Assembly: GCF_016903815.1 (NCBI RefSeq)
Contig: NZ_CP069973.1
Reading direction: 5' to 3' (one strand)
Origin: Escherichia coli
Lineage (GTDB): Bacteria > Pseudomonadota > Gammaproteobacteria > Enterobacterales > Enterobacteriaceae
DNA: 64,000 nucleotides
The position numbers and the translations under genes were made by a program. The notes under the pieces were generated by a model that was not told where the DNA came from, did no database searches, and saw nothing but the letters and a program-made list of their open reading frames with translations. Shown piece after piece: positions 15,461 through 64,000 of the stretch (its first letter is position 1; every line of letters begins with the position of its first letter).

Positions 15461-17596
15461 TTACTTCAACACATACCCGTACAACCGTTTCATGCCATCT
15501 GCATCGGTTTCGCTATAGACACCTTGCAGCTCCGGCGAAAATCCCGGCAACAAATTCACCCCTTCTTCCAGCGCAAGGAAATAACGTTGAACCGCCCCAC
15601 CCCAGACTTCTCCGGGTACCACGCAAAGCACGCCTGGTGGATAAGGCAACGCCCCTTCTGCCGCAATTCGCCCTTCGGCATCACGAATCCGCACCAACTC
15701 CACTTCACCGCGAATATAAGCGCTATGCGCATCCTGGGGATTCATCACCACTGACGGGAAACTCTGCTGGCGGAACATCGCTTTTTGTAGGTCTTTGACG
15801 TCGAAACTGACATACAAATCGTGCATCTCCTGACACAACTGGCGCAGGGTGTAGTCGCGATAGCGCACCGGATATTTGTTATAAACGCTCGGCAACACCT
15901 CAGCCAGCGGCGAGTCATCCTCAATATGCTGTTCAAACTGCGCCAGCATCGCCACCAGTTGTGCCAGCTTCTCGTGGCTTTCCGCCGGAGTTAATAAGAA
16001 CAGAATGGAGTTGAGATCGCACTTCTCCGGCACAATGCCGTTCTCACGCAGGTAGTGCGCCAGAATCGTCGCCGGAACGCCAAAGTCGCTATATTCGCCG
16101 GTTTCGGCATTGATACCTGGTGTAGTGAGTAACAGCTTGCACGGATCAACAAAATACTGATCCGCGGCATATCCTTCAAAGCCGTGCCACTTCGCCCCCG
16201 GCTCAAAACTGAAAAAACGACGGTCACTGGCTAACACTGATGTCGGATAATCCTGCCACAATTTGCCATCAACAACAGGCGGGATAAACGGGCGGAACAG
16301 CTTACAGCGCGCAAGAATCGCCTTCCGGGCTTCAATCCCCAACGCAACGCACTCCGCCCACAGCCGACGCCCACTCTCCCCTTCATGAATTTTGGCGTTA
16401 ACGTCCAGCGCGGCAAACAGCGGATAGAACGGGCTGGTAGAAGCATGGAGCATAAAGGCATTATTTAACCGCTTATGCGGGCAAAAACGCGCCTGCCCGC
16501 GAATATGGTTATCTTTTTTATGGATCTGCGATGTCTGCGAGAAGCCCGCCTGCTGTTTGTGCACCGACTGGGTCACAAAGATCCCCGGATCGTTTTCGTT
16601 AAGTTCTAACAGCAGCGGCGAGCTATCCGCCATCATCGGGATAAACTGTTCGTAACCGACCCACGCGGAATCAAACAGAATGTAATCACACAGATGCCCA
16701 ACGGTATCGATCACCTGACGGGCGTTATAGACAGTGCCGTCATAGGTTCCCAGCTGAATAATCGCCAGGCGAAACGGGCGCGGCAGGTCGGCTTTTTCTG
16801 GCGCAACGTCGCGAATTTGCTGGCGCAGATACTCTTCATTAAAACAGTGCGCATCAATACCGCCAATGAAACCAAACGGGTTACGTGAAGCTTCCAGATA
16901 GACCGGCGTCGCCCCCGCCTGAATCAGCGCGCCGTGATGATTCGACTTATGGTTGTTACGGTCGAAGAGCACCAGATCGCCACGCGTTAACAGCGCATTC
17001 GTCACCACTTTATTCGCTGCCGATGTGCCGTTCAGTACAAAATAGGTTTTATCGGCATGAAAGACTTTGGCTGCGAATTTCTGCGCATCCTTCGCCGATC
17101 CTTCATGAATAAGCAGATCGCCCAATTTTACGTCAGCGTTACACATATCGGCGCGAAAGATGTTCTCGCCAAAGAAATCGTAAAAATGGCGTCCGGCAGG
17201 ATGCTTTTTAAAGAACGCACCATGTTGATGTCCAGGGCAAGCAAAGGTGCTGTTGCCCATCTCAACGTACTGCGTCAGCGTGTCATAAAACGGTGGCAGC
17301 AAATTCTCTTCATACTGACAGGCTGCGGATTCCAGCTCCAGCCACTGCTGCTCGTTGCCGTTGATTACCGCCGTAACGCCCGCAGGTAATTCAACAGCAT
17401 GTTCGGAATACAAAAACACCGGTAGATGAAAACCGGTGCGCTTAAGCAACGCAAGAATGCCACTGCGACTATCCGCAGCGGTAATGACGACTGCCGCGAC
17501 GTCCGTAAAATCAGTATCTCCCAACGCCACCACGCGGCGATGAGTAGAAAGTCGGGATACCAGTTCACTACTGGCGGCAATATTCATTGATTTCAT
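15461..17596 (-). CDS. speC: constitutive ornithine decarboxylase
   Basis: Start taken at MKSMNIAASSELVSRL (711 aa), PLP-dependent decarboxylase. Confidence 0.95.
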   Translation of the reverse strand: MKSMNIAASSELVSRLSTHRRVVALGDTDFTDVAAVVITAADSRSGILALLKRTGFHLPVFLYSEHAVELPAGVTAVINGNEQQWLELESAACQYEENLLPPFYDTLTQYVEMGNSTFACPGHQHGAFFKKHPAGRHFYDFFGENIFRADMCNADVKLGDLLIHEGSAKDAQKFAAKVFHADKTYFVLNGTSAANKVVTNALLTRGDLVLFDRNNHKSNHHGALIQAGATPVYLEASRNPFGFIGGIDAHCFNEEYLRQQIRDVAPEKADLPRPFRLAIIQLGTYDGTVYNARQVIDTVGHLCDYILFDSAWVGYEQFIPMMADSSPLLLELNENDPGIFVTQSVHKQQAGFSQTSQIHKKDNHIRGQARFCPHKRLNNAFMLHASTSPFYPLFAALDVNAKIHEGESGRRLWAECVALGIEARKAILARCKLFRPFIPPVVDGKLWQDYPTSVLASDRRFFSFEPGAKWHGFEGYAADQYFVDPCKLLLTTPGINAETGEYSDFGVPATILAHYLRENGIVPEKCDLNSILFLLTPAESHEKLAQLVAMLAQFEQHIEDDSPLAEVLPSVYNKYPVRYRDYTLRQLCQEMHDLYVSFDVKDLQKAMFRQQSFPSVVMNPQDAHSAYIRGEVELVRIRDAEGRIAAEGALPYPPGVLCVVPGEVWGGAVQRYFLALEEGVNLLPGFSPELQGVYSETDADGMKRLYGYVLK

Positions 17597-18801: not shown

Positions 18802-18877
18802 GCCCGGATAGCTCAGTCGGTAGAGCAGGGGATTGAAAATCCCCGTGTCCTTGGTTCGATTCCGAGTCCGGGCACCA
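18802..18877 (+). tRNA. pheV: tRNA-Phe (GAA anticodon)
   Basis: 76-nt cloverleaf gcccggatagctcagtcggtagagcaggggattgaaaatccccgtgtccttggttcgattccgagtccgggcacca; position after yqgA. Confidence 0.95.
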
Positions 18878-18888
18878 AATTCATATAA

Positions 18889-18915
18889 ACGGACCTCCAC
18901 GGAGGTCCGTTTTTC
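18889..18915 (+). terminator. tRNA terminator
   Basis: acggacctccacggaggtccgtttttcg hairpin plus T-run. Confidence 0.6.
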
Positions 18916-19074
18916 GTTTCAGAACACCATGATTTAAGTGTTCTTCCTCCAAATCAATTCTACCGAACTCAACCAAATTCTCCCCACATCAACCTCATTG
19001 TGTGGGTATAATTGCGGGTATACCCCAGTTCGACAGAATTTGTACCCTCTTTAACGCATTCAGAAGGCTGAACT

Positions 19075-20337
19075 ATGGCACTGACTGACGCAAAAATCCG
19101 GGCTGCAAAGCCCACTGACAAGGCTTATAAACTTACTGACGGGGCCGGCATGTTCCTGCTGGTTCATCCTAATGGTTCCCGTTACTGGCGTCTCCGTTAT
19201 CGTATTCTGGGTAAGGAGAAGACTCTGGCACTTGGTGTGTATCCAGAAGTTTCTCTCTCCGAAGCTCGTACAAAACGGGATGAGGCCCGAAAACTGATTT
19301 CGGAGGGGGTTGACCCTTGCGAACAGAAAAGAGCTAAAAAAGTTGTCCCTGATTTACAGCTCTCTTTTGAACATATTGCACGACGCTGGCATGCCAGTAA
19401 TAAACAATGGGCACAATCACACAGCGATAAAGTACTCAAAAGCCTCGAGACACACGTTTTCCCCTTTATCGGCAACCGGGATATCACAACACTCAATACC
19501 CCGGACCTGCTTATCCCTGTTCGTGCTGCAGAAGCTAAACAAATTTATGAAATCGCCAGTCGTCTGCAGCAAAGAATATCTGCTGTAATGCGTTATGCCG
19601 TACAGTCTGGCATCATCAGATATAACCCGGCTCTGGATATGGCTGGTGCATTGACCACGGTAAAACGCCAGCATCGCCCTGCTCTGGATCTTTCACGCCT
19701 GCCTGAACTTCTGTCGCGTATTGACGGTTATAAAGGCCAGCCTGTCACCCGACTGGCAGTTATGCTGAATTTACTGGTTTTTATTCGTTCCAGTGAACTC
19801 AGATATGCCCGCTGGTCTGAAATTGATATTGACAATGCCATGTGGACTATTCCAGCCGAACGCGAACCTCTGCCGGGCGTAAAATACTCACACCGGGGCT
19901 CCAAGATGCGAACACCACATCTTGTGCCACTCAGCCAACAGGCTGTAGCCATACTGACAGAACTTCAGACATGGGCAGGTGAAAATGGTCTGATATTTAC
20001 GGGTGCACATGACCCGCGTAAACCAATCAGTGAAAATACTGTAAATAAAGCCCTCAGGGTGATGGGGTATGACACAACCCGGGAAGTCTGTGGCCATGGA
20101 TTCCGGGCGATGGCGTGCAGTGCATTGATTGAATCAGGTTTGTGGTCCCGCGATGCTGTGGAACGTCAGATGAGCCATCAGGAGCGTAATGGTGTACGTG
20201 CTGCGTATATCCATAAAGCAGAACATCTGGAAGAACGTCGACTGATGCTACAGTGGTGGGCAGATTTTCTGGATGCGAACAGAGAACAATGTATCAGCCC
20301 GTTTGAATATGCAAAGATTAACAATCCATTAAAATAG
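19075..20337 (+). CDS. P4-type tyrosine integrase
   Basis: 420-aa ORF, N-terminus MALTDAKIRAAKPTDKAYKLTDGAGMFLLVHPNGSRYWRLRYR typical of P4/CP4 integrases, adjacent to tRNA. Confidence 0.9.
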   Translation: MALTDAKIRAAKPTDKAYKLTDGAGMFLLVHPNGSRYWRLRYRILGKEKTLALGVYPEVSLSEARTKRDEARKLISEGVDPCEQKRAKKVVPDLQLSFEHIARRWHASNKQWAQSHSDKVLKSLETHVFPFIGNRDITTLNTPDLLIPVRAAEAKQIYEIASRLQQRISAVMRYAVQSGIIRYNPALDMAGALTTVKRQHRPALDLSRLPELLSRIDGYKGQPVTRLAVMLNLLVFIRSSELRYARWSEIDIDNAMWTIPAEREPLPGVKYSHRGSKMRTPHLVPLSQQAVAILTELQTWAGENGLIFTGAHDPRKPISENTVNKALRVMGYDTTREVCGHGFRAMACSALIESGLWSRDAVERQMSHQERNGVRAAYIHKAEHLEERRLMLQWWADFLDANREQCISPFEYAKINNPLK

Positions 20338-27877: not shown

Positions 27878-28351
27878 ATGTGCAAACTGACTAAAGAAGA
27901 AGAATACAGCATCATCAGTCGGACAATGACGAATATTCGTTCACTACGCACGTATGTACGCGAACTTGATTTTGAGCAATTACTCGACATGCAGGAAAAG
28001 CTCAACACTGTTATTGAAGAACGCCGTGAAGATGCTGAACGAAAAGCGGCTGAACGTAAGGAACTGGAAACTAAATGTCAACAGGTATTTGAGTACATCG
28101 TTTCTGTGGGGCTTGACCCGGAAGAATGGCAGGGTCCAGTTTCTGCTATTGCAGGGACAACGGAAACCAAACGAAAACCCAAAGGCGGTGTGAGAAAAGC
28201 GAAATATATCTTTGAGGATGAGAACGGCGAAACCAGGACGTGGTCTGGTAACGGTAAAATGCCACTTGCTTTGCGGAAACAGGTTAATGGAGATTGTACC
28301 CTGGAAACTTTCCTCATTGAAAAACCCAATCAACATGAACAAAGTGAATAA
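27878..28351 (+). CDS. H-NS family nucleoid protein paralog
   Basis: Translation aligns by eye with H-NS (NIRSLRTYVRELDFEQLLDM...; AKYIFEDENGETRTWSGNGKMP). Confidence 0.8.
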   Translation: MCKLTKEEEYSIISRTMTNIRSLRTYVRELDFEQLLDMQEKLNTVIEERREDAERKAAERKELETKCQQVFEYIVSVGLDPEEWQGPVSAIAGTTETKRKPKGGVRKAKYIFEDENGETRTWSGNGKMPLALRKQVNGDCTLETFLIEKPNQHEQSE

Positions 28352-35972: not shown

Positions 35973-36214
35973 AAAATGCATCGGTTGATCTCGATGGAAG
36001 GACACAACTGATAGATCATGTTCTTGGACTTCTTACTGAATACGGCATTGTGTTCAGTAAAAGCGCAACAGAATTACGCCCCAAATTACCGGCATTACTT
36101 GAGGATGCGGCGATGCTGTACCTGCGGATTGGTACATGCCGTCTGAACAATATGGCTCCAGAAAAATGGCTGTGAACCGCCCCGGGTTTCCTGGAGAGTG
36201 TTTTATCTGTGAAC

Positions 36215-37105
36215 TCAGGCTGCCAGATCATCGTTTCCGATGGAAGCATAATAAGCTTTTTCTGCTTCTGCCGGAGGAGTATGGCCCAGCCTTCCCAGCA
36301 ATCGTCGATTGTTATACCAGTCCACCCACGTTAGTGTGGCCAGTTCCACTTCTGCACGGTTTTTCCAGCTCTTACGGTGTATTACCTCCGCTTTGTAAAG
36401 ACCATTGATGCTCTCAGCCATCGCGTTGTCATACGAGTCGCCTGTACTCCCTGTTGATGCCAGTAATCCGGCTTCTTTTAGTCGCTCCGTATAGGCCAGT
36501 GACACATACTGAGAGCCTTTATCGCTGTGATGGATGGTGCCAGACGGACGACGGGCCCACAACGCCTGCTCCAGCGCATCCAGCACGAATGTCGTTTCCA
36601 TAGACGATGAGACCCGCCACCCCACGATGTATCCGGCAAACACATCAATGATAAACGCCACATAGACGAAGCCCTGCCATGTGCTGACGTAAGTAAAATC
36701 AGCCACCCACAGCTGGTCAGGTCGTTCTGCCACGAACTGACGGTTTACGCGGTCGCCTGCGGCAACGGCTTTCCGGCTGATGGTCGTACGGACCTTTTTA
36801 CCCCGGAGAACACCGGCAAGTCCCATAACCGCCATGAGACGTGCCACTGTACATCTGGCCACCCTGATTCCTTCCCGTAACAACTGACGCCAGACTTTAC
36901 GCACACCGTACACCTGATGATTTTCATCGTATACGCGCTGTATCTCTCTCTTCAGCCAGTCGTCGTGCTGCGCACGGGCACTGCGTTTATCCGGATGATG
37001 TCGCTGTTGCTGACAATGGTAATACGTTGACGGGGCAATATGCAGTTCGCTGCATACCGGTCCGACCCCGTACTGCTCACGCAGCTTATCCAGCAGTGGC
37101 ATCAT
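36215..37105 (-). CDS. insF: IS3 transposase OrfB (DDE integrase domain)
   Basis: 296-aa translation recognised as IS3 InsF. Confidence 0.85.
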
Positions 37106-37428
37106 TTTTTCCAGAGGCGGTCGAACTCCGCCTTCGCAAAATAAGCGGAAGCCTGGCGAAGGATATCGTTACTGCGGCGCAGTTCACGATTTTCACGTTC
37201 CAGCTCTTTCAGACGCTGACGTTCAGCGCTGGTGAGCCCACCATCACCGCCCCCGGTATCCCGCTCATGCTGGCGAACCCAGACACGCAGAGTCTCCGGC
37301 GTACAGCCAATCTTTGGAGCAATGGAACAAATTGCCGCCCACTGTGAGTCATATTCATCCTGACTTTCCAGAACCATACGAATCGCCCGCTGACGGACTT
37401 CGGGGGAAAAACGAGTATTTTTAGTCAT
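37102..37428 (-). CDS. insE: IS3 transposase OrfA (HTH)
   Basis: 108-aa translation [20 protein letters not shown]... recognised as IS3 InsE. Confidence 0.85.
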
Positions 37429-37453
37429 CCTGTTTACCTCTTTCTCAGGGAGT

Positions 37454-40400
37454 TTAGTCTCCAGGATTTCCGGGGCGGTTCAGCTGTTCATTAAAACGTT
37501 GTCCAGGCTGATCATAAAGTGCGCGTAATGTCTCCGCGGATGGCCGCGGTTGCATTTGCTGCATGCAGGGTTTCTGGTGGTAATCAAAATACTGTGGCAG
37601 ATGCTGGATCTCTGCTTTGTTTTCAATTACCCGTTGAAGGGCTCTTTGACGCAACTCTCTTGATGATTTGTCACGGATCGATTCCAATTGTAGCTGGCTG
37701 CCGCTACTAATTCGCTTACGAGCAGCATCAAAATCAAAGCGAATAGCCAATAGACTCGGCGTAGTCTCACTTAGCTGCAATTCCCCTAATTGCACTGATT
37801 CACGCTTATCTTTAATATAAACAATGATCTTATCATCAAGTTCAAAGCTGAGGTCAGCACCGGATTCCGTAGTATATGGGTAGAGTAAGCAACCACTCGG
37901 TGATTCCTGAAAGTCAGTAGAGTCGATGTTGACTATATCTCGTAGGTCTACTTCTGTATCAGATAATGCCTGCCATAACTCAATTGGGCTTGACTCACTA
38001 CTATCGAAGTCATCTTCATCCATCTCTTGATTAGGATTAGCTCGCTCAATGATGGCATCAATTACTGGCTCGAGGTTAAACAGTAGTTCAATAAAAGTAT
38101 TACGCTGATTAAGTGAGCCACGTTGTAATGAAAGTTGAGTATTAATTTTAGCCTGGGAATATTTACCAGCCTTTATACTTTCTTCGATCGATAATCCTTT
38201 TTCATACACTATTCTATTAATAGTGCGATTATCAGGATCTAAGTCTATCAATAGCCGCTCTCCTAGGCCAGTGATGTAACAACGCAATTCATGCGCAAAG
38301 CGTGGGTTAGATGACCAGTTACATTGAAAATAATAGATCCCATCATTTTGTTCTAGAAGCTTCACTTCTTGCGGCCAATCATCTGTGCCCCAGCAAACAG
38401 GAATTACCTTATCCTGTGACTCAGACGCCACAACTTGATTAATCTCAGCTTGTTCCGGTGCTCGAATTGACTGCAGCAAAGGATCGAGCGCGATAGGTAT
38501 ACCGTCAACGGTTTGTTTTGCGCGTTCTAGCTCAGCCTGCACCAGTACTGGCATATCTTCACTAAATAGCTCCTCCACCATACGATATACTGCAAAGCAA
38601 TCTCGCCCAAAAGCATCAGTACTTTCGGGATTCTCTGGCTGGTAGCGATTATCTGCAGTTAATTCATCACTGAATTCAAGCAATCCAATCAGAGTAATTA
38701 CTGTCTGCTCCCCGACTTGTACCAGCAGTTTCTCTGGGCAAAGATCTCCATGAGGTAACTGCTTTTCATGAAAAGCATGAATGGTGTTGATCAACTTTTC
38801 CGCAATTGTAAAACGTTGGGATTGTACTAACACGTTCTCAGCAATAAACTGTGACCACGGTAGGCCATCCACATACTCGCTCACTACATACAAGCCGCCT
38901 TGTCCTAATAGTCCATAGGACTGCACCTTAGGAGTTGGCAGATTTATATGCGTAAGCTTATCGATCCGTTGCTTAAAAGCGTGGATACGGCGGTTAACAC
39001 CAGGTTGTTGAGGGGTCAAAATAACACCATCCCACAATTTTACCTGCAGAGCTTTCCCACCTTGTTCACAGTGATAACTGATGCTGCCAGTCGTAGCAAT
39101 AGCAGCAAGAGCAGAGTAAACCATAGACAACTGTTCAGGAAGTGGAGGAAACTCAATTAACACACCAACGCTGTTCATCCCTTCGCGAAAGAATTTGTTT
39201 TGCTTTAATTCTTGATAAATCTGGTTAGCTTCATCAAATTCTTGGCTATGTTCCTTAGTAGCTGCATTAAACTCATTGAGCATTATGTCCGCACGTGGAA
39301 AGCGTTTACTTGGCTCAAGGTTAAGAGCTTGCTCAAACCAGCTATTTAGAATACCGCTAAAAGGATCAGTTAATGGAGCTCTCCATTCAGGCATCTGTCC
39401 AGGAGTCAGTAATGATTCACCTGCAAAACAAATACGATAAGCAATTACAGCCAACATGAATACATCTAGGCGATAGGGCTCAACTGCTTCTTCAAAAGCA
39501 TCTTCGGGCAAAATATATGGAGCACTTTGCAATGTCGGACGCAATGACTCTAGGCTATTATGTCCCTCCAGTGAGGCTGCGCCAAAGCCAGTAACGACAA
39601 TGCTCTTCTGATCCCCTGCGTACCATAGATTGTGCGGGTCAATATCACAATGACTGATACCCAAGCTATGTAATTCCGAGAATGGAGCTAATAATGCACG
39701 AACGCGATCAATACGCTCAGATTTACTCCATCCGTCAGCTTCGCTATCTAGAATCTCATCTAATCGGCTAAAACTACGGCGTAACTCATACAGCTCACGG
39801 GCATCATCAGTTATATCCTCCTCGGATAGTTCCCTTACAGCACGCAACATATAATCCTGCATAGTTGCGCTGCCATGACGAACTAGGCGACCGACTCGAG
39901 TCTCACGCAGAGCTATCTCAGCCCACAATGTTTGCATTGCGTTTGCTACACCCAAGGCATCAAAGTTCCACTGCCGTAGCAGACCTCTGTGTTGACTATT
40001 GTCTTTGTGGGTAGCCCTGAATTCGTTGTAGACCATGTGAGGGTGACTAAAGAATGGCTTATCGTTCGCAAGATAACCGCTTTCTTTTAGTGGCAAAGGC
40101 CTGACTTTTGGTCCTTCAAAGAAGGACTTAATTATAGGTAATGCCTCATCAGAATTTGGTCGAGGCTTTCCCCCTTCAAAAAGATGAAAAAAGTTAGTGT
40201 GTTGCACCAGCTTTTCGTAATTTTTTGGGTTACCTATAGTCAAGAATTCATCACGGGTATGAACATAGCGCCTCTCACTTAATGGCAAGTTTTCAGGACC
40301 AGCTGTGCCACACAGCACTACATGAGCCTCAACATGCAAAAAGTAACCCAGCTTACGAGATAACTCTTCCTGCAACAAATCTTTTAGTCGCAGTGCATGC

Positions 40401-48635: not shown

Positions 48636-50179
48636 GCTGATGACTCCTGAAAGTTAATGACGTTTTAAGTGCTGTAAACGAATTAATGCTTTCGCTCATA
48701 ATCAGATCTAAAACGGTAATAACTTACAGACGGTATTTATCAGGCATGCTGTAACAGAATGGATACGTCGGTTATTAACGACACACAGCGTTGTGCTGAA
48801 GGGTATGAGTTATCTGATGGCATTGTCTATAGAGATGAGATAAACGAGGTGCGAAGAAAATACAGATTCAATACAACACAGTGAAATACAGAAAAATACG
48901 AACTGTAATCCCGCTGCCAGGCGGTTAGGAAACATATTACAACTATAAGCTCATGGTTTGTAAATTTGCTCTCAGTGAGTCTGAAAAAACGTTTATAAGG
49001 TCACCACAATAAACTCACACGCGCTTATTCAATCTGTTCTCCAGGATATGAACGTTAACGACACACGATAGCATAAGACAACATACAATGGATGAATAAT
49101 TTTCACCCAGTACCTTAAACAATACAACCGGCAACAAATATAATCAGAAATTCACTCTGTTAATTCTGTTGTTTATCCTGCGCTGTTAAACATGACGGAA
49201 CCATGGATACCTTATCAAAGAGTAAGCATTCAGTTAATCAGTAATGACAGAGAAATTGATGTTCACCAGAATAGTTAAAACACTTCAGATAAACAATCAT
49301 TGTTAAGCAAATACGGTTCATAATGGATAAATTAGAATCAATTACTGTTTTACTGAAGATGAGAATAGATGAATATCAACAATAGCGTAGTAGAGAATAA
49401 CTTACCTGAACATCATATGAGTTACAGTAGTTATGATTGAGGGATGGAGTGAATACGATAACAAGAGTAATACTAATGGAATGTGTAAAGATTGAGAGTG
49501 AGTGAAGACAGGAAGTAAATAACAATAGAGATTGTATGAAAAAGGGAGTGAATAAAGAATATATAAAGAATAAATATAATTATAGTAATAAACCTAAATT
49601 AAAATCATCCTTGTTTGATGAGTAAAAATAATTCTAGAAAATGAATCTGTCTGAAAACTCTTTCTCAGAGATTAACCGATCAGATGCTCAACGGACTCAA
49701 TAAATTGGCTGAGTCAGGTTACCTCATCCACACTCTATTTGTTTCTAGAAGGATCTACCATTTTGTTCATCTACCGGAACACATCAATTTAGTAACTCGA
49801 TAATATCGGTTATGTAGATATTTATCGTTGCTACCAATGCCTAGATTATTATTCTCCAAGTATTTTCTTGACTTACAGGCTAATTTTGAAACAAATGTCA
49901 TGCTATTTTAGGAAAAGAACCTATGCAAAAGTCTGCTATGAGCGAGGAGCAGATATTCATCTGGTATACAAAGACAATATCGCTTAAGTCATCAGTGCTG
50001 CCACTTTAACCACTAGCTCTGCTCTTTTTGGACTTTTGAGCTAAAAATTAAATCTGACAGTGTGATAAGGTGCAAGTTTCTGAAAATACGCCAGTTGTTT
50101 TACACTCAAAAGCCCCCATTACTATCTGATGTTAATGGCGCAGCAGTTATCTTTCAGATTATTAAGGGGAAACAAGAGT

Positions 50180-50884
50180 ATGGCAAGATGTACAGCTCCT
50201 GTACGTGGACATAGCTCAGCAGCAGCTGCTGCTGCCTGTCCCGCATGTCGTAATCGCAGTGGTTATCGCCGCAGTAGCTACAGTTATGATAGTTACCCTT
50301 CTTACTCATCAGGCTCTAGCGGTGGCGGAAGTTATGGAGGCAGTAGCGGTGGTTCCAGCAGCAGCGCGAAGCCACGTTGGTCAAAATCAGGGTCTTCCGT
50401 TTCTTACACAACAGCCCAAGTACAATCACTCACACCAATTCGACAAGCGGTAGAGAAACTTGCCATTGAGCAACCTGATCTGCGTGATGTCTTTCTTTGC
50501 CATGCTTGGGATGACCGACAAGGTATTGCCAAAGAGTTACACGATTTGCTCGAAGCGGCAGGTGTCAAAGTATGGTTCAGCGAAAAGGATCTTGCCCTTG
50601 GTGTTCCGATGATGCGTGCCATTGATAAAGGATTAGCAAACTCTCGAATCGGCTTGGTTTTAGTGACACCTGCATTGTTAAACCGTCTTCCTAAAGAAGG
50701 CGTTGCTGATAAAGAACTTTCCGCCTTACTGGCAGGCAACCAACTCGTTCCCATCGTGCATAACACGACGTATGAAGCTCTCCGTAATGTCAGTCCTTTG
50801 CTTGCATCCCGAAGCGGCCTCGACACGGGAGAAGATACATTGGCAGTTGTTGCAACAAAAATTGCAGAGCTGATCACTGTTTAG
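50180..50884 (+). CDS. TIR-domain protein with Ser/Gly/Tyr-rich low-complexity N-terminus
   Basis: RBS aagggga then ATG; TIR-like motifs DVFLCHAWDD, VWFSEKDLALG, SRIGLVLVTPALL. Confidence 0.7.
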   Translation: MARCTAPVRGHSSAAAAAACPACRNRSGYRRSSYSYDSYPSYSSGSSGGGSYGGSSGGSSSSAKPRWSKSGSSVSYTTAQVQSLTPIRQAVEKLAIEQPDLRDVFLCHAWDDRQGIAKELHDLLEAAGVKVWFSEKDLALGVPMMRAIDKGLANSRIGLVLVTPALLNRLPKEGVADKELSALLAGNQLVPIVHNTTYEALRNVSPLLASRSGLDTGEDTLAVVATKIAELITV

Positions 50885-52039: not shown

Positions 52040-52883
52040 GATGAGAGATCTCCGTTGATTTGGATTGACTTCACATCATTAATCACCGCGGTAAAACTTT
52101 ACGGCATCCCGCCATTGAGCAACGCCAATGGCTCCTGATTAAAACAGAATGAATCCCCCACGAAGAAAAAATAAACCTACACGCAGAGTAAAACACACAA
52201 CAACGGCATAAATGGTTTTTAAAAACTACAAAGCCTGAAGGGAAACGGATCCACAGAACGTGCAAACAAAACACCAAAAACGCAATCAGAACGCTTTCTG
52301 CTGCTGTGAATCAACAACAATACCAAAACCTACAGCTTAACCACAAAACTCAATCACAGAGCCGAATAGCGTGTTTAAAACCTGTTTACAGATAACCCTG
52401 CCACAAGAACAAAGTTCACCAATATCAGAATCGATTTTCTCATCCTGAAAATGTTACGTTTCACTACACAGCATAAAAACGATTAACTATTGATAACGTA
52501 AACCTCATCTGAATCAAAACACCAGAACCAATCATCACGCTTTTCCTGAAAAGAGCCTTGCGCTGAGAAAAAACACCAGGGTCAGTTAATCATCTCATCA
52601 ATCTCATCGTTACAAAAACATCCATAAAACCATTTAACAAAATCATCGTAAGCACACAGTAAATCACGCCAGGTTATCTCAGCCAAATTTTCGTTTTACA
52701 TAAAGACACTTGTCTCAGGTTAACGACTAAAAACACAAAAACTCAGAAAAGGTTAAACGTAACTTCAGAAAAATAGAATATCATATTGATTGCTTAAACA
52801 GGAAAGATTGTTTTGTAGTAGCATTAAGCTGATTTTAGTTAACGTAAAAACAGGACTGACAGGTTTACTAAACTGGATGTGTA

Positions 52884-53100
52884 TCAGACAAAGCAATGTG
52901 TATAACAATACTTAATGAAAACACTTGTAGAATTGTTTATGAAAATACGTGTATGTCTGGTAAAACACTTAGTAGAAAATACGTGTATAACACTTACTGA
53001 AATGCTTAGTAAAAATACTTAGTAAAATATGTGTAGAATTATCTATTTAAAAAGATATGTATATAACACTTAATAAAAACATGTGTATATAGTATCATAC
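52884..53100. repeat. iteron-like array of degenerate direct repeats in AT-rich intergenic DNA
   Basis: Recurring GTGTATAACA(A/C)T..A.TGAAAA and TGTAGAATT.T.TAT..AAAA units, 2-3 copies each. Confidence 0.4.
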
Positions 53101-53730
53101 CGACATTCTCAACATCTTCAGACTTCCATACATACTGGGTGTTGATTTCTCACTTTTACAGCCAGCATGGAGTTTTCTGTCCTAAAAACAGAGCAGATTT
53201 ACTCTGGAATTATTTTTCTACCCCCGTATTTCAGGCCCCAGAAAAGACAATCCGAAGCAAACCGTTTGTCAGCCTCCATATCATCTTTTACCCCCGGAAA
53301 GTGATCGCGTTTACAACCAGAATGACAGCCATACTGATTATGTCGTCTCCCGGCCCCCTTCACATATAACATGCATGTCTGTCATTGCTTACTGCTCCAC
53401 ATGACCGGATTTCACATACAGGATGCACATTCAGTGTTTTTATCGCTACTATAACAGACAGATTACTGTCGTCTTTACTCTTCAGATTGTTAATCTGACC
53501 ACAAGAACAGCCGAACGGCAAAACGCCCTCCACAAGGGGCACATGAACCATAGTTGATAGCATGTTTTTCCTAATCAAGGAATAGTTCAGGAATATTTTA
53601 TTGCATTAATAACTGGCGAATAATCGTTCTGTGAACACAAAATGCTTTTATTTGTAAATTTTATTGCATTGCACTCGTTTTATTGATATGGGGTTTAATA
53701 ACAGATAACCCGGAAAGAAGGAGAAAACAG

Positions 53731-61284: not shown

Positions 61285-62127
61285 ATGTCTGAAATCACAG
61301 CCCCCCGTCCGGAAGTGGTCAACGGGCATACGGACGTTATCTGCTCAACCAGTATCCGCCACATTCTGGCTGTACGAAAGAGTACACTGCTGCAAATCGA
61401 CACACTTATCCGGCAACTGGCTGAAATATCAGCAATGACAGAAAGTATTGGCGGTAAAGCCGCCCCGGGCTGGGCCATGAAACAGGATTTTCGCTACGGC
61501 TGCTGGCTGATGGAGAAACCGGAAACCGCAATGAAAGCCATCACACGCAATCTCGATCGCGAAATCTGGCGTGACCTGATGCAACGTTCAGGGATGCTTT
61601 CCTTAATGGATGCACAGGCCCGTGATACATGGTACCGGTCACTGGAGTACGATAATTTTCCGGAAATCAGTGAAGCGAACATTCTGATCACATTTGAACA
61701 ACTACACCAGAATAAGGATGAGGTGTTTGAGCGAGGGGTGATCAACGTCTTCAGGGGACTGAGCTGGAATTACAAAACCAATTGCCCCTGCAAATTTGGC
61801 AGTAAAATTATCGTCAACAACCTGGTGAGGTGGGACCGGTGGGGGTTTCATCTTATCACCGGGCAACAGACTGACCGACTCGTCGACCTGGAAAGAATGC
61901 TACATCTGTTCAGCGGCAAACCGATCCCCGACAACCGGGAAAACATCACTATTCGTCTGGATGGTCACATCCAGTCCGTTCAGGGTAAAGAGCGCTATGA
62001 AGACGAGATGTTCATCATTAAATACTTTAAGAAGGGATCTGCACACATCACTTTCAAAAGGCTGGAACTGATTGACAGAATTAACGATATAATAGCCAAG
62101 TACTTTCCTTCTGTGCTCTCAGCCTGA
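61285..62127 (+). CDS. DUF4942-like protein
   Basis: 280-aa ORF at the distal end of the CP4-type backbone. Confidence 0.55.
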   Translation: MSEITAPRPEVVNGHTDVICSTSIRHILAVRKSTLLQIDTLIRQLAEISAMTESIGGKAAPGWAMKQDFRYGCWLMEKPETAMKAITRNLDREIWRDLMQRSGMLSLMDAQARDTWYRSLEYDNFPEISEANILITFEQLHQNKDEVFERGVINVFRGLSWNYKTNCPCKFGSKIIVNNLVRWDRWGFHLITGQQTDRLVDLERMLHLFSGKPIPDNRENITIRLDGHIQSVQGKERYEDEMFIIKYFKKGSAHITFKRLELIDRINDIIAKYFPSVLSA

Positions 62128-62237
62128 TCCCGAGTGTGATTCCCTTTCGATATCAAAAGGGACTGCGGGTATAATTGAGGGTACATTTTTAATCAAACCA
62201 AATAAATTATATTAATATCAATATGATAAAAGAAATT

Positions 62238-62260
62238 TTCGATTCCGAGTCCGGCACCAC
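62238..62260 (+). repeat. attR-like direct repeat: imperfect copy of tRNA-Phe 3' end
   Basis: ttcgattccgagtccgg-cacca versus tRNA ttcgattccgagtccgggcacca (one base missing). Confidence 0.65.
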
Positions 62261-62274
62261 TAATTCTTAAGAAC

Positions 62275-62295
62275 CCGCCCACAAGGCGGGTTTTT
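62275..62295 (+). terminator. hairpin terminator
   Basis: cccgcccacaaggcgggttttt. Confidence 0.4.
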
Positions 62296-62439
62296 GCTTT
62301 TGGATCTTTATATAAAATAAACTTGGGAGCATAACGCCATCAGGTCTTAAACACTCCCGAATCATCAATAAACATCCCCCGTTAACAAAACACAGTTCAG
62401 TTCACATAACATCCCTGTTATCCCACACATATCTGCTGG

Positions 62440-62640
62440 CCGAACGACGCCAGTGCGCGTACGGAGGCAAGAGCAGCCCTGCACATGGCAGCGCTTGTGG
62501 TAACCTGGTTTAATCCGGTGATAAAGGCGTTTTACATGCATCTGCCAGCAGCCGGAAAAACCAAAAAAGTGGCGCTGGTTGACTGTATGCGTAAATTGCT
62601 GACCATCCTGAACGCAATGCTCAGAAAAAACGAAGAGTGA
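62440..62640 (+). pseudogene. IS110-family transposase 3' fragment
   Basis: Translated tail ...WFNPVIKAFYMHLPAAGKTKKVALVDCMRKLLTILNAMLRKNEE* typical of IS110-family C-termini; no N-terminal part present. Confidence 0.45.
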
Positions 62641-63450
62641 AATGAATCGTAGCATCATGTTGCTCCATAATTTTTACGTTCAAGACAGTTGATTATCGGC
62701 GCATATGACTCAAAAAGAGCCTGATGATTGCCTCTTTTCCATAGGCTCTTTCTCTGAAGTGAAGGAAGGCCCGGAAGAAAGCACTCGCTGGCATACGTGA
62801 CTCCAGCTCAACCGGAGATAATCACCATTGTTATTTTTCTATTTAATAATAATCTCCTGAAAAATAGATATAGCAAAAATACAATCCGGCCAGATTTAAT
62901 TCCGCATTCATTACCAGAAATAATCAACACCACAACTATCATATCATTCAATAGTCACCGCTAAAATTTTATTATTTTCCTCTTCTTTACATGGAAATTG
63001 TCAACCTGTTTATTATGCCGCACTTAAATAGTTAATCACAAAACAACATCACCATTATTTGCGTGTTTTATTTATTAATAACATAGTCATACGTTCTTTT
63101 TTTACAAGGAAATAATCAATTGATAAATTGTTTTTGGTCTTAATAGTCAAGTAGGAAACATTTTAATAAATGATAAAAATCCTAAATTCCTTGTTCATAA
63201 TGTAGGGGTGTGTTAAATAGGTGGGCAAAATTTGGTTCCCCTTCTCGCCTGTAATATTGCAGCATCTTCGCACCTCCATGAGACATTGCGACTTAATAAG
63301 AAGGTGATAAGTCCTGCATATAAGCATGGACTGACCATGGTTTTATATTCATTAAAAATTTTGTTACAACCCATTGATTTAGCATAAATAAATTATAGTG
63401 GGTTCGGGTTAGTTGTGACTGTGGCATTATTTCCGTGCAAAGGAGCTGAT

Positions 63451-64000
63451 ATGTCTGAAAGACATTTACCTGATGACCAGAGCAGTACTATCGATCCATA
63501 TCTAATTACCTCTGTTCGCCAGACTCTGGCAGAACAAGGCGCAGCATTACAAAACTTGTCTAAACAACTGGATTCCGGGCAGTACCAGCGTGTCCTTAAT
63601 TTGATAATGAACTGTAAAGGTCACGTTATTCTTTCGGGAATGGGTAAATCAGGGCATGTCGGTCGTAAAATGTCAGCGACGCTGGCCTCTACGGGTACGC
63701 CTAGTTTCTTTATTCATCCTGCAGAAGCTTTCCATGGCGATCTGGGCATGATTACGCCTTACGATCTTCTGATCCTTATTTCTGCCAGCGGTGAAACGGA
63801 TGAAATCCTCAAGCTAGTTCCTTCACTGAAAAATTTCGGCAACCGAATTATCGCCATTACCAATAATGGAAATTCCACGCTGGCGAAAAATGCTGATGCC
63901 GTGCTGGAACTCCACATGGCGAATGAAACCTGCCCGAATAATCTTGCACCAACAACGTCTACCACGCTGACGATGGCGATCGGCGATGCGCTGGCGATTG
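63451..64000 (+). CDS. kpsF: arabinose-5-phosphate isomerase KpsF (5' part; continues beyond window)
   Basis: SIS-domain motifs GMGKSGHVGRKMSATLASTGTPSFF; RBS aggag; preceded by about 700 bp of AT-rich DNA. Confidence 0.85.
   Translation, partial: MSERHLPDDQSSTIDPYLITSVRQTLAEQGAALQNLSKQLDSGQYQRVLNLIMNCKGHVILSGMGKSGHVGRKMSATLASTGTPSFFIHPAEAFHGDLGMITPYDLLILISASGETDEILKLVPSLKNFGNRIIAITNNGNSTLAKNADAVLELHMANETCPNNLAPTTSTTLTMAIGDALAI

Follow-up and report, generated by a model that had tools for sequence, protein, structure and literature searches.

The DNA that lies directly upstream of kpsF in this E. coli chromosome raises a simple question: is it the tail of the genomic island that ends beside it, or the beginning of the capsule locus that follows, and are those two neighbours one module or two? 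We addressed this in a 64,000-nucleotide stretch of E. coli DNA (hereafter the window; 48.4% G+C overall), positions 62100-64000 of which are 100% identical to several complete genomes, strain 2779 among them. From left to right, the junction consists of a copy of the pheV 3' end, the native pheV terminator, a spacer, an IS110 remnant, a further 119 bp and a tract of AT-rich DNA that runs up to kpsF (Table 1). With high confidence, we assign this stretch to a group 2 capsule (kps) cluster, as its left border and transcriptional control region, situated just outside a pheV-integrated island.

Table 1. Features of the junction between the pheV island and the kps cluster, in window coordinates.
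Feature	Position	Strand	Basis or product
attR of the pheV-integrated island (distal direct repeat, 22 nt, copied from the pheV 3' end)	62238..62259	+	
Native pheV-downstream DNA, common to K-12, including the intrinsic terminator	62260..62307	+	Alignment to a K-12-like genome; terminator scan
kps-linked spacer, left edge of the kps module	62308..62451	none	
IS110-family element remnant, last 72 codons and right end	62452..62691	+	
Spacer of ordinary composition, 119 bp, conserved with the kps leader	62692..62810	none	
AT-rich upstream regulatory DNA of PR1	62811..63226	+	Published coordinates transferred by exact matches
kpsF 5' untranslated region, 224 nt	63227..63450	+	
kpsF, 5' part, cut at the window end	63451..64000	+	Arabinose-5-phosphate isomerase of the capsule cluster

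The only tRNA gene that ARAGORN detected in the window was tRNA-Phe (pheV; 18802-18877). The 3' end of this gene recurs far to the right as TTCGATTCCGAGTCCGGCACCA, with one G of the GGG run missing, and a 17-mer taken from it occurs exactly twice in the window (the second time at 62238), compared with an expectation of 0. The tRNA-copy repeat that the original prediction had placed ahead of a transposase fragment is therefore present. Adjoining pheV is an open reading frame of 420 amino acids (19075-20337), a P4-type integrase with the arm-binding, central and catalytic domains of the phage integrases. The intervening DNA thus has the attributes of a tRNA-integrated island, namely a tyrosine integrase beside the tRNA gene, a direct repeat at the far end and variable occupancy. 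A pheV island with 22-bp repeats and variable occupancy has been described previously (PMC10272209).

Several other properties of the island were evident. It encodes an H-NS family paralogue of 157 amino acids (27878-28348, plus strand; the call is taken from the annotation of a strain that is identical at that point), 35 kb from the H-NS-silenced capsule promoter. It also contains two further stretches of less than 36% G+C (48751-50210 and 52211-53450), one of which includes the most AT-rich point of the window (30.5% G+C at 49271). Strain 2779 differs from the window in a single respect, approximately 8.2 kb of additional island DNA in which copies of IS1203 are repeated (window ~36173-37486), so that 100% matches at the junction do not imply the same island structure.

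Beyond the tRNA copy, alignment to a K-12-like genome showed that homology to K-12 persists for 48 bp (62260-62307) and is then lost. Within these 48 bp, 62262-62307 matched at 100% in all 14 kps-negative genomes among the matches listed, and a terminator scan detected a hairpin of 12 pairs (62268-62296) followed by a T run. This native pheV terminator would probably halt transcription arriving from the island and so shield kps. An Rfam search at a permissive threshold returned a single match over the tRNA copy and terminator, to the Pseudomonas P9 RNA, which was sub-threshold (24 bits against 43) and which we took to be a hairpin artefact. At the other end of the island, a hairpin with a T run supplied by the island (CGGACCTCCACGGAGGTCCGTTTTT; 18878-18920) can be read directly in the sequence behind the reconstituted pheV gene, so that pheV has a replacement terminator while the native one stays at the distal end.

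We then compared the organisation of this region with that of K-12, in which yghD lies about 150 bp after pheV. One strain shares the last 21.9 kb of the window at full identity; there, the yghD stop codon is exactly where homology to K-12 begins again, at a distance of 17,549 bp to the right of 62308, and the kps segment takes the place of 101 bp of intergenic sequence in K-12. Of 5,426 complete E. coli genomes surveyed, 1,698 carry the kps leader. Three junction queries were applied to the same collection. The junction of island end and kps was found in 1,501 genomes; in another 210, kps is present in the absence of the island, its flank being joined directly to an intact, unoccupied pheV; and in 794, the same island end is joined directly to yghD with kps missing. 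Since K-12-like genomes have neither, all four combinations exist among complete genomes, indicating that island and kps come and go independently. This distribution, together with the direct repeat that lies between them, upholds the earlier proposal that kps is a separately acquired module next to the island.

It has been argued, on the contrary, that a single event brought in island and capsule locus together, the two being one pathogenicity island (PAI-pheV in the broad sense). A 2025 study extended PAI-pheV of CFT073 from c3556 to beyond kpsM and called both parts co-acquired (PMC12488582), a view with which the many genomes carrying the two side by side are compatible. Co-transfer on large fragments does occur, as donors of K1 loci have been inferred from island synteny (PMC10272209). 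Against a single island, the direct repeat and 48 bp of native pheV flank, terminator included, separate the island from kps; each of the two is found beside its chromosomal neighbour without the other; and kps has no integrase of its own and has boundaries (62308 to the yghD stop) that differ from those of the island. We therefore consider a single acquisition unlikely, and the co-acquired island described for CFT073 is not supported as a general statement (PMC12488582). That island and kps are separate modules is supported, and agrees with work on K1 lineages (PMC10272209).

The assignment of the AT-rich DNA to a capsule locus depends on the identity of the gene that it precedes. The open reading frame that begins with the ATG at 63451 is cut by the end of the window, with 183 residues inside. 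KpsF, KdsD and GutQ are homologous, and the in-window residues match the models of all three, so that on this fragment the gene could be taken for a housekeeping KdsD/GutQ paralogue in a non-capsule context, and the AT-rich DNA would then not be a capsule promoter. To distinguish between these, the full-length protein and its neighbours were taken from the strain identical to the window over 42100-64000. The complete protein passed the KpsF/GutQ subfamily cut-off (340.8 against 203.7 bits) but fell short of the equivalog cut-offs for both KdsD (302.7 against 505) and GutQ (286.4 against 481). Furthermore, the genes that follow are kpsE, kpsD, kpsU (annotated as kdsB), kpsC, kpsS, the serotype-specific region 2, kpsT and kpsM, and then yghD, and K-12 lacks the locus at this position. 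Scores and neighbours together refute an identity as KdsD or GutQ, a reading to which we assign practically no probability. The gene thus withstood the comparison with its gutQ/kdsD paralogues and is kpsF, a capsule gene.

Between the pheV terminator and the AT-rich DNA lies the piece that had been described as a C-terminal transposase fragment of the IS110 type, and this proved to be correct. RefSeq annotates an open reading frame at 62458-62640 (plus strand) as a partial 'IS110 family transposase, missing N-terminus'. In a tblastn search, residues 251-322 of an intact 322-residue IS110-family transposase aligned to 62452-62667 (76% identity, E 1.5e-32), and by BLASTP the 60-residue fragment was 78% identical to residues 253-312 of the intact copy. 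The latter has both PF01548 (DEDD) and PF02371 and passes NCBIfam NF033542. The fragment itself gave no match in a Pfam search of its 60 amino acids and matched NF033542 at model positions 282-342 of 343 (E 1.4e-8), below the full-length cut-off. At the nucleotide level, full-length IS110-family genes on E. coli chromosomes and on plasmids of Klebsiella and E. coli match 62471-62691 with their 3' ends, at about 87% identity. Similarity to the intact element stops at ...CAAGACAGTTG (62691), beyond which the flanks diverge, and this position therefore marks the right terminus of the IS. A search for further IS110 homology upstream of 62452 found none.

Relative to an intact member of the family, the remnant preserves the C-terminal transposase domain in part, and is without the N-terminal DEDD (RuvC-like) domain, an intact reading frame and the left end. 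The reading frame is interrupted by a premature stop (TGG to TGA at 62638-62640), through which the tblastn alignment reads. Members of the IS110 group encode a guide RNA in the left end; here, the left end and any bridge-RNA region are missing. With the DEDD domain and left end gone and a premature stop in what is left, the remnant cannot be a functional IS110 member. Judged from its sequence, it is a dead 240-bp stub, inert and devoid of the parts needed for activity. The left flank with the stub was carried by ~1,611 complete genomes, compared with the 1,698 that have the leader, and the stub is thus essentially fixed in the kps locus. The transposase fragment is already on record as c3684 in CFT073 (PMC12488582).

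A spacer lies on either side of the remnant. The left one (45% G+C over 62308-62470, 163 bp) occurs only together with kps, and its segment 62308-62451 resembled neither the intact IS110 element nor any other sequence. The right one (62693-62810) is of ordinary composition (49% G+C) and is conserved alongside the kps leader. A repeat search of 62100-63500 returned just short two-copy matches.

To the right of the remnant the composition changes. The distance from the IS end (62692) to the kpsF ATG is 759 bp, with 34.6% G+C over 62693-63450, so that the predicted figure of about 700 bp of AT-rich DNA was a fair one. The strongly AT-rich core (62811-63450) comprises 640 bp at 31.9% G+C, which places it in the lowest 1% of 640-bp windows. 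To establish whether this is the capsule promoter region, as had been proposed, we compared it with the characterised region 1 promoter (PR1) of group 2 kps by exact sequence matching, using as anchors a review (PMC8960920) and the data of Jia et al. 2017 (PMC5738388) with their supplementary Table S2. The sequence agreed with published PR1, at the published spacing. Of the PR1-1 oligonucleotide, the 3' 18 nt (GTGTTAAATAGGTGGGCA, the last base of which is +1) matched exactly at 63210-63227, which places the -10 hexamer TTAAAT at 63213-63218 and the start at 63227. The published oligonucleotide is 20 nt long; at its first two bases, which precede the part searched, the window differs (GTGTGTT rather than GAGTGTT). 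The PR1-2 oligonucleotide matched in its entirety at 63338-63358, with the -10 hexamer TATATT at 63344-63349 and the start at 63358, equivalent to +132 as published. Additionally, the IHF site TTACAACCCATTG was found as an exact match at 63364-63376 (+138 to +150, near the published +140), and both EMSA primers used by Jia et al. 2017 (PMC5738388) matched exactly. The published numbering differs by 2 nt between primer-based and table-based anchors.

The remaining elements were positioned from these anchors. By numbering alone, the PR1-3 start (+181) falls at 63407, and TATAGT at 63394-63399 is likely to be its -10 hexamer. The kpsF ATG falls at +225, again in agreement with the published spacing, and is preceded by a Shine-Dalgarno sequence, AAGGAG, at 63440-63445. 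H-NS and SlyA protect site I, from -224 to -134, and site II, from -121 to -79 (PMC8960920). Transfer of coordinates puts these at 63003-63093 and 63106-63148, respectively, and H-NS site III at 63227-63258; the DNA from -224 to -1 relative to PR1-1 has 27% G+C. In an alignment of five strains including CFT073, the promoter hexamers, starts and IHF site were invariant, and two columns of the 5' UTR varied within 63398-63411. Indeed, 1,691 of the 1,698 carrier genomes among the 5,426 surveyed have the leader at at least 95% identity. When a 21-mer across the IHF site was sought in 100,044 species-representative genomes, no exact match was found; the leader was thus not seen outside E. coli in that collection.

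A consensus promoter scan reported 7 sites against 4.9 expected, no better than in shuffled sequences, and the promoters mapped by experiment were not among them. For H-NS, the nucleation motif TCGATAAATT was not enriched in the window (7 against 5.4), with one 9/10 match inside H-NS site II. Folding of the 5' UTR gave no significant structure (z = -1.37), and an attenuator at the hairpin 63325-63339 was unsupported, this terminator-like hairpin being weak and within chance expectation. The ops/JUMPStart motif was not found in the region, and GGCGGTAG occurs twice in other parts of the window, as often as expected by chance.

The behaviour of PR1 has been demonstrated experimentally in strains K5, K1 and UTI89 (PMC8960920, PMC5738388). 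In those strains, kpsFEDUCS is transcribed from three tandem sigma-70 promoters, PR1-1, PR1-2 and PR1-3. At 20 C, PR1-1 is silenced by H-NS bound to the AT-rich DNA; SlyA uses the same sites I and II as H-NS, and full transcription at 37 C needs H-NS and SlyA jointly. PR1-2 depends on transcription from PR1-1, probably via supercoiling. Finally, IHF bound at +140 represses PR1-2 and PR1-3 as exponential growth ends and cells enter stationary phase. Given the conservation of all mapped elements, the strain studied here would be expected to behave in the same way. RyhB has also been reported to activate expression via the kpsF 5' UTR.

We also considered whether the part of the junction that is not AT-rich contributes to this regulation. 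The right end of the IS110 fragment, or the surrounding 62308-62810, might provide an input in cis to kps, for example an outward promoter element or one that restrains PR1-1. Remnant and flanks are, after all, retained at high identity in nearly all genomes that have the leader. Moreover, Jia et al. reported that PR1-1 is weaker when chromosomal than when plasmid-borne and suggested cis elements beyond -646 (PMC5738388); this position, at which the longest published reporter construct starts, corresponds to 62581, inside the stub. Yet linkage and the young age of the locus explain the retention equally well, no promoter-like site was found there by the promoter scan and no match by Rfam, and variants with ISEc10 inserted at ~62889, or with the DNA left of ~63028 replaced, keep an intact kps operon. 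An input of this kind therefore seems improbable. We think it similarly improbable that 62308-62810 and the pheV terminator together act as the PR1-1-weakening element 'beyond -646' or as an insulator against transcription from the island. The reading that we favour remains that of a border, with an inert stub, beside a conserved PR1.

Variant junctions were seen in several other genomes. Some strains, such as SCU-176 (685-2936), carry ISEc10, an IS21-like element, in the AT-rich leader some 560 bp ahead of kpsF, an insertion that leaves PR1 intact but parted from the IS110 stub. In strain E1624, all DNA to the left of about -199 has been replaced by IS5 and IS1, truncating H-NS site I; the pheV integrase lies merely 1.7 kb from kpsF, indicating that the island has been largely deleted. 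In strain EC24, a DUF5983 gene of the island abuts the IS110 stub at window ~62501, implying a deletion in which the end of the island was lost along with the tRNA copy and the terminator. The junction of pheV terminator, IS110 stub, PR1 and kpsF was also found at 99% identity in NZ_LR890315.1 (1-29040; junction 15901-17088), a 29-kb 'circular plasmid 4' of Klebsiella oxytoca MSB1_10D with no replicon typed. This molecule also has E. coli-type island genes and a kps cluster, in which kpsS is followed, on its own strand, by kpsM and kpsT. Its appearance is that of E. coli contamination or of a misassembly, although it may be a mobilised kps segment.

The literature already covers each element of the stretch upstream of kpsF, and the junction is an ordinary and well understood one. 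What the analysis provides is annotation, in the form of an exact boundary between island and kps and of promoter, H-NS and IHF features in window coordinates, and it leaves current understanding unchanged; the genome counts show island and kps to be independent modules. Among the virulence factors of extra-intestinal E. coli, the K capsule is a major one, and PR1 integrates the temperature and growth-phase signals that act on it.

Compared with known systems, the island resembles PAI-V/PAI-pheV, the island with a P4-type integrase found in pheV beside kpsF (PMC10272209), in its integrase adjoining pheV, in its 22-nt direct repeats, of which the distal one lies just upstream of the left flank of kps, and in its presence in only some kps-positive strains. 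It differs from those versions that carry pap or ireA in its cargo, which here comprises sucrose utilisation, an H-NS paralogue and type VI secretion fragments. The remnant resembles the IS110 RNA-guided DEDD transposases (NF033542; PF01548, PF02371) in its C-terminal 72 codons and right terminus (76-78% identity in protein and 87% in DNA, relative to intact E. coli and Klebsiella copies); unlike them, it is a stub that stops early and retains neither the DEDD domain nor the left end, and little of the C-terminal domain; it cannot be functional. The leader corresponds to the kps PR1 of Jia et al. 2017 (PMC5738388) in the -10 hexamers of PR1-1 and PR1-2, the three starts, the IHF site, the primer sites, the spacing and the downstream operon. 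It differs from UTI89 and CFT073 by no more than a few single-base changes, such as GTGTGTT for GAGTGTT upstream of the PR1-1 -10 hexamer and CCCCTTC for CCCTTTC at +14.
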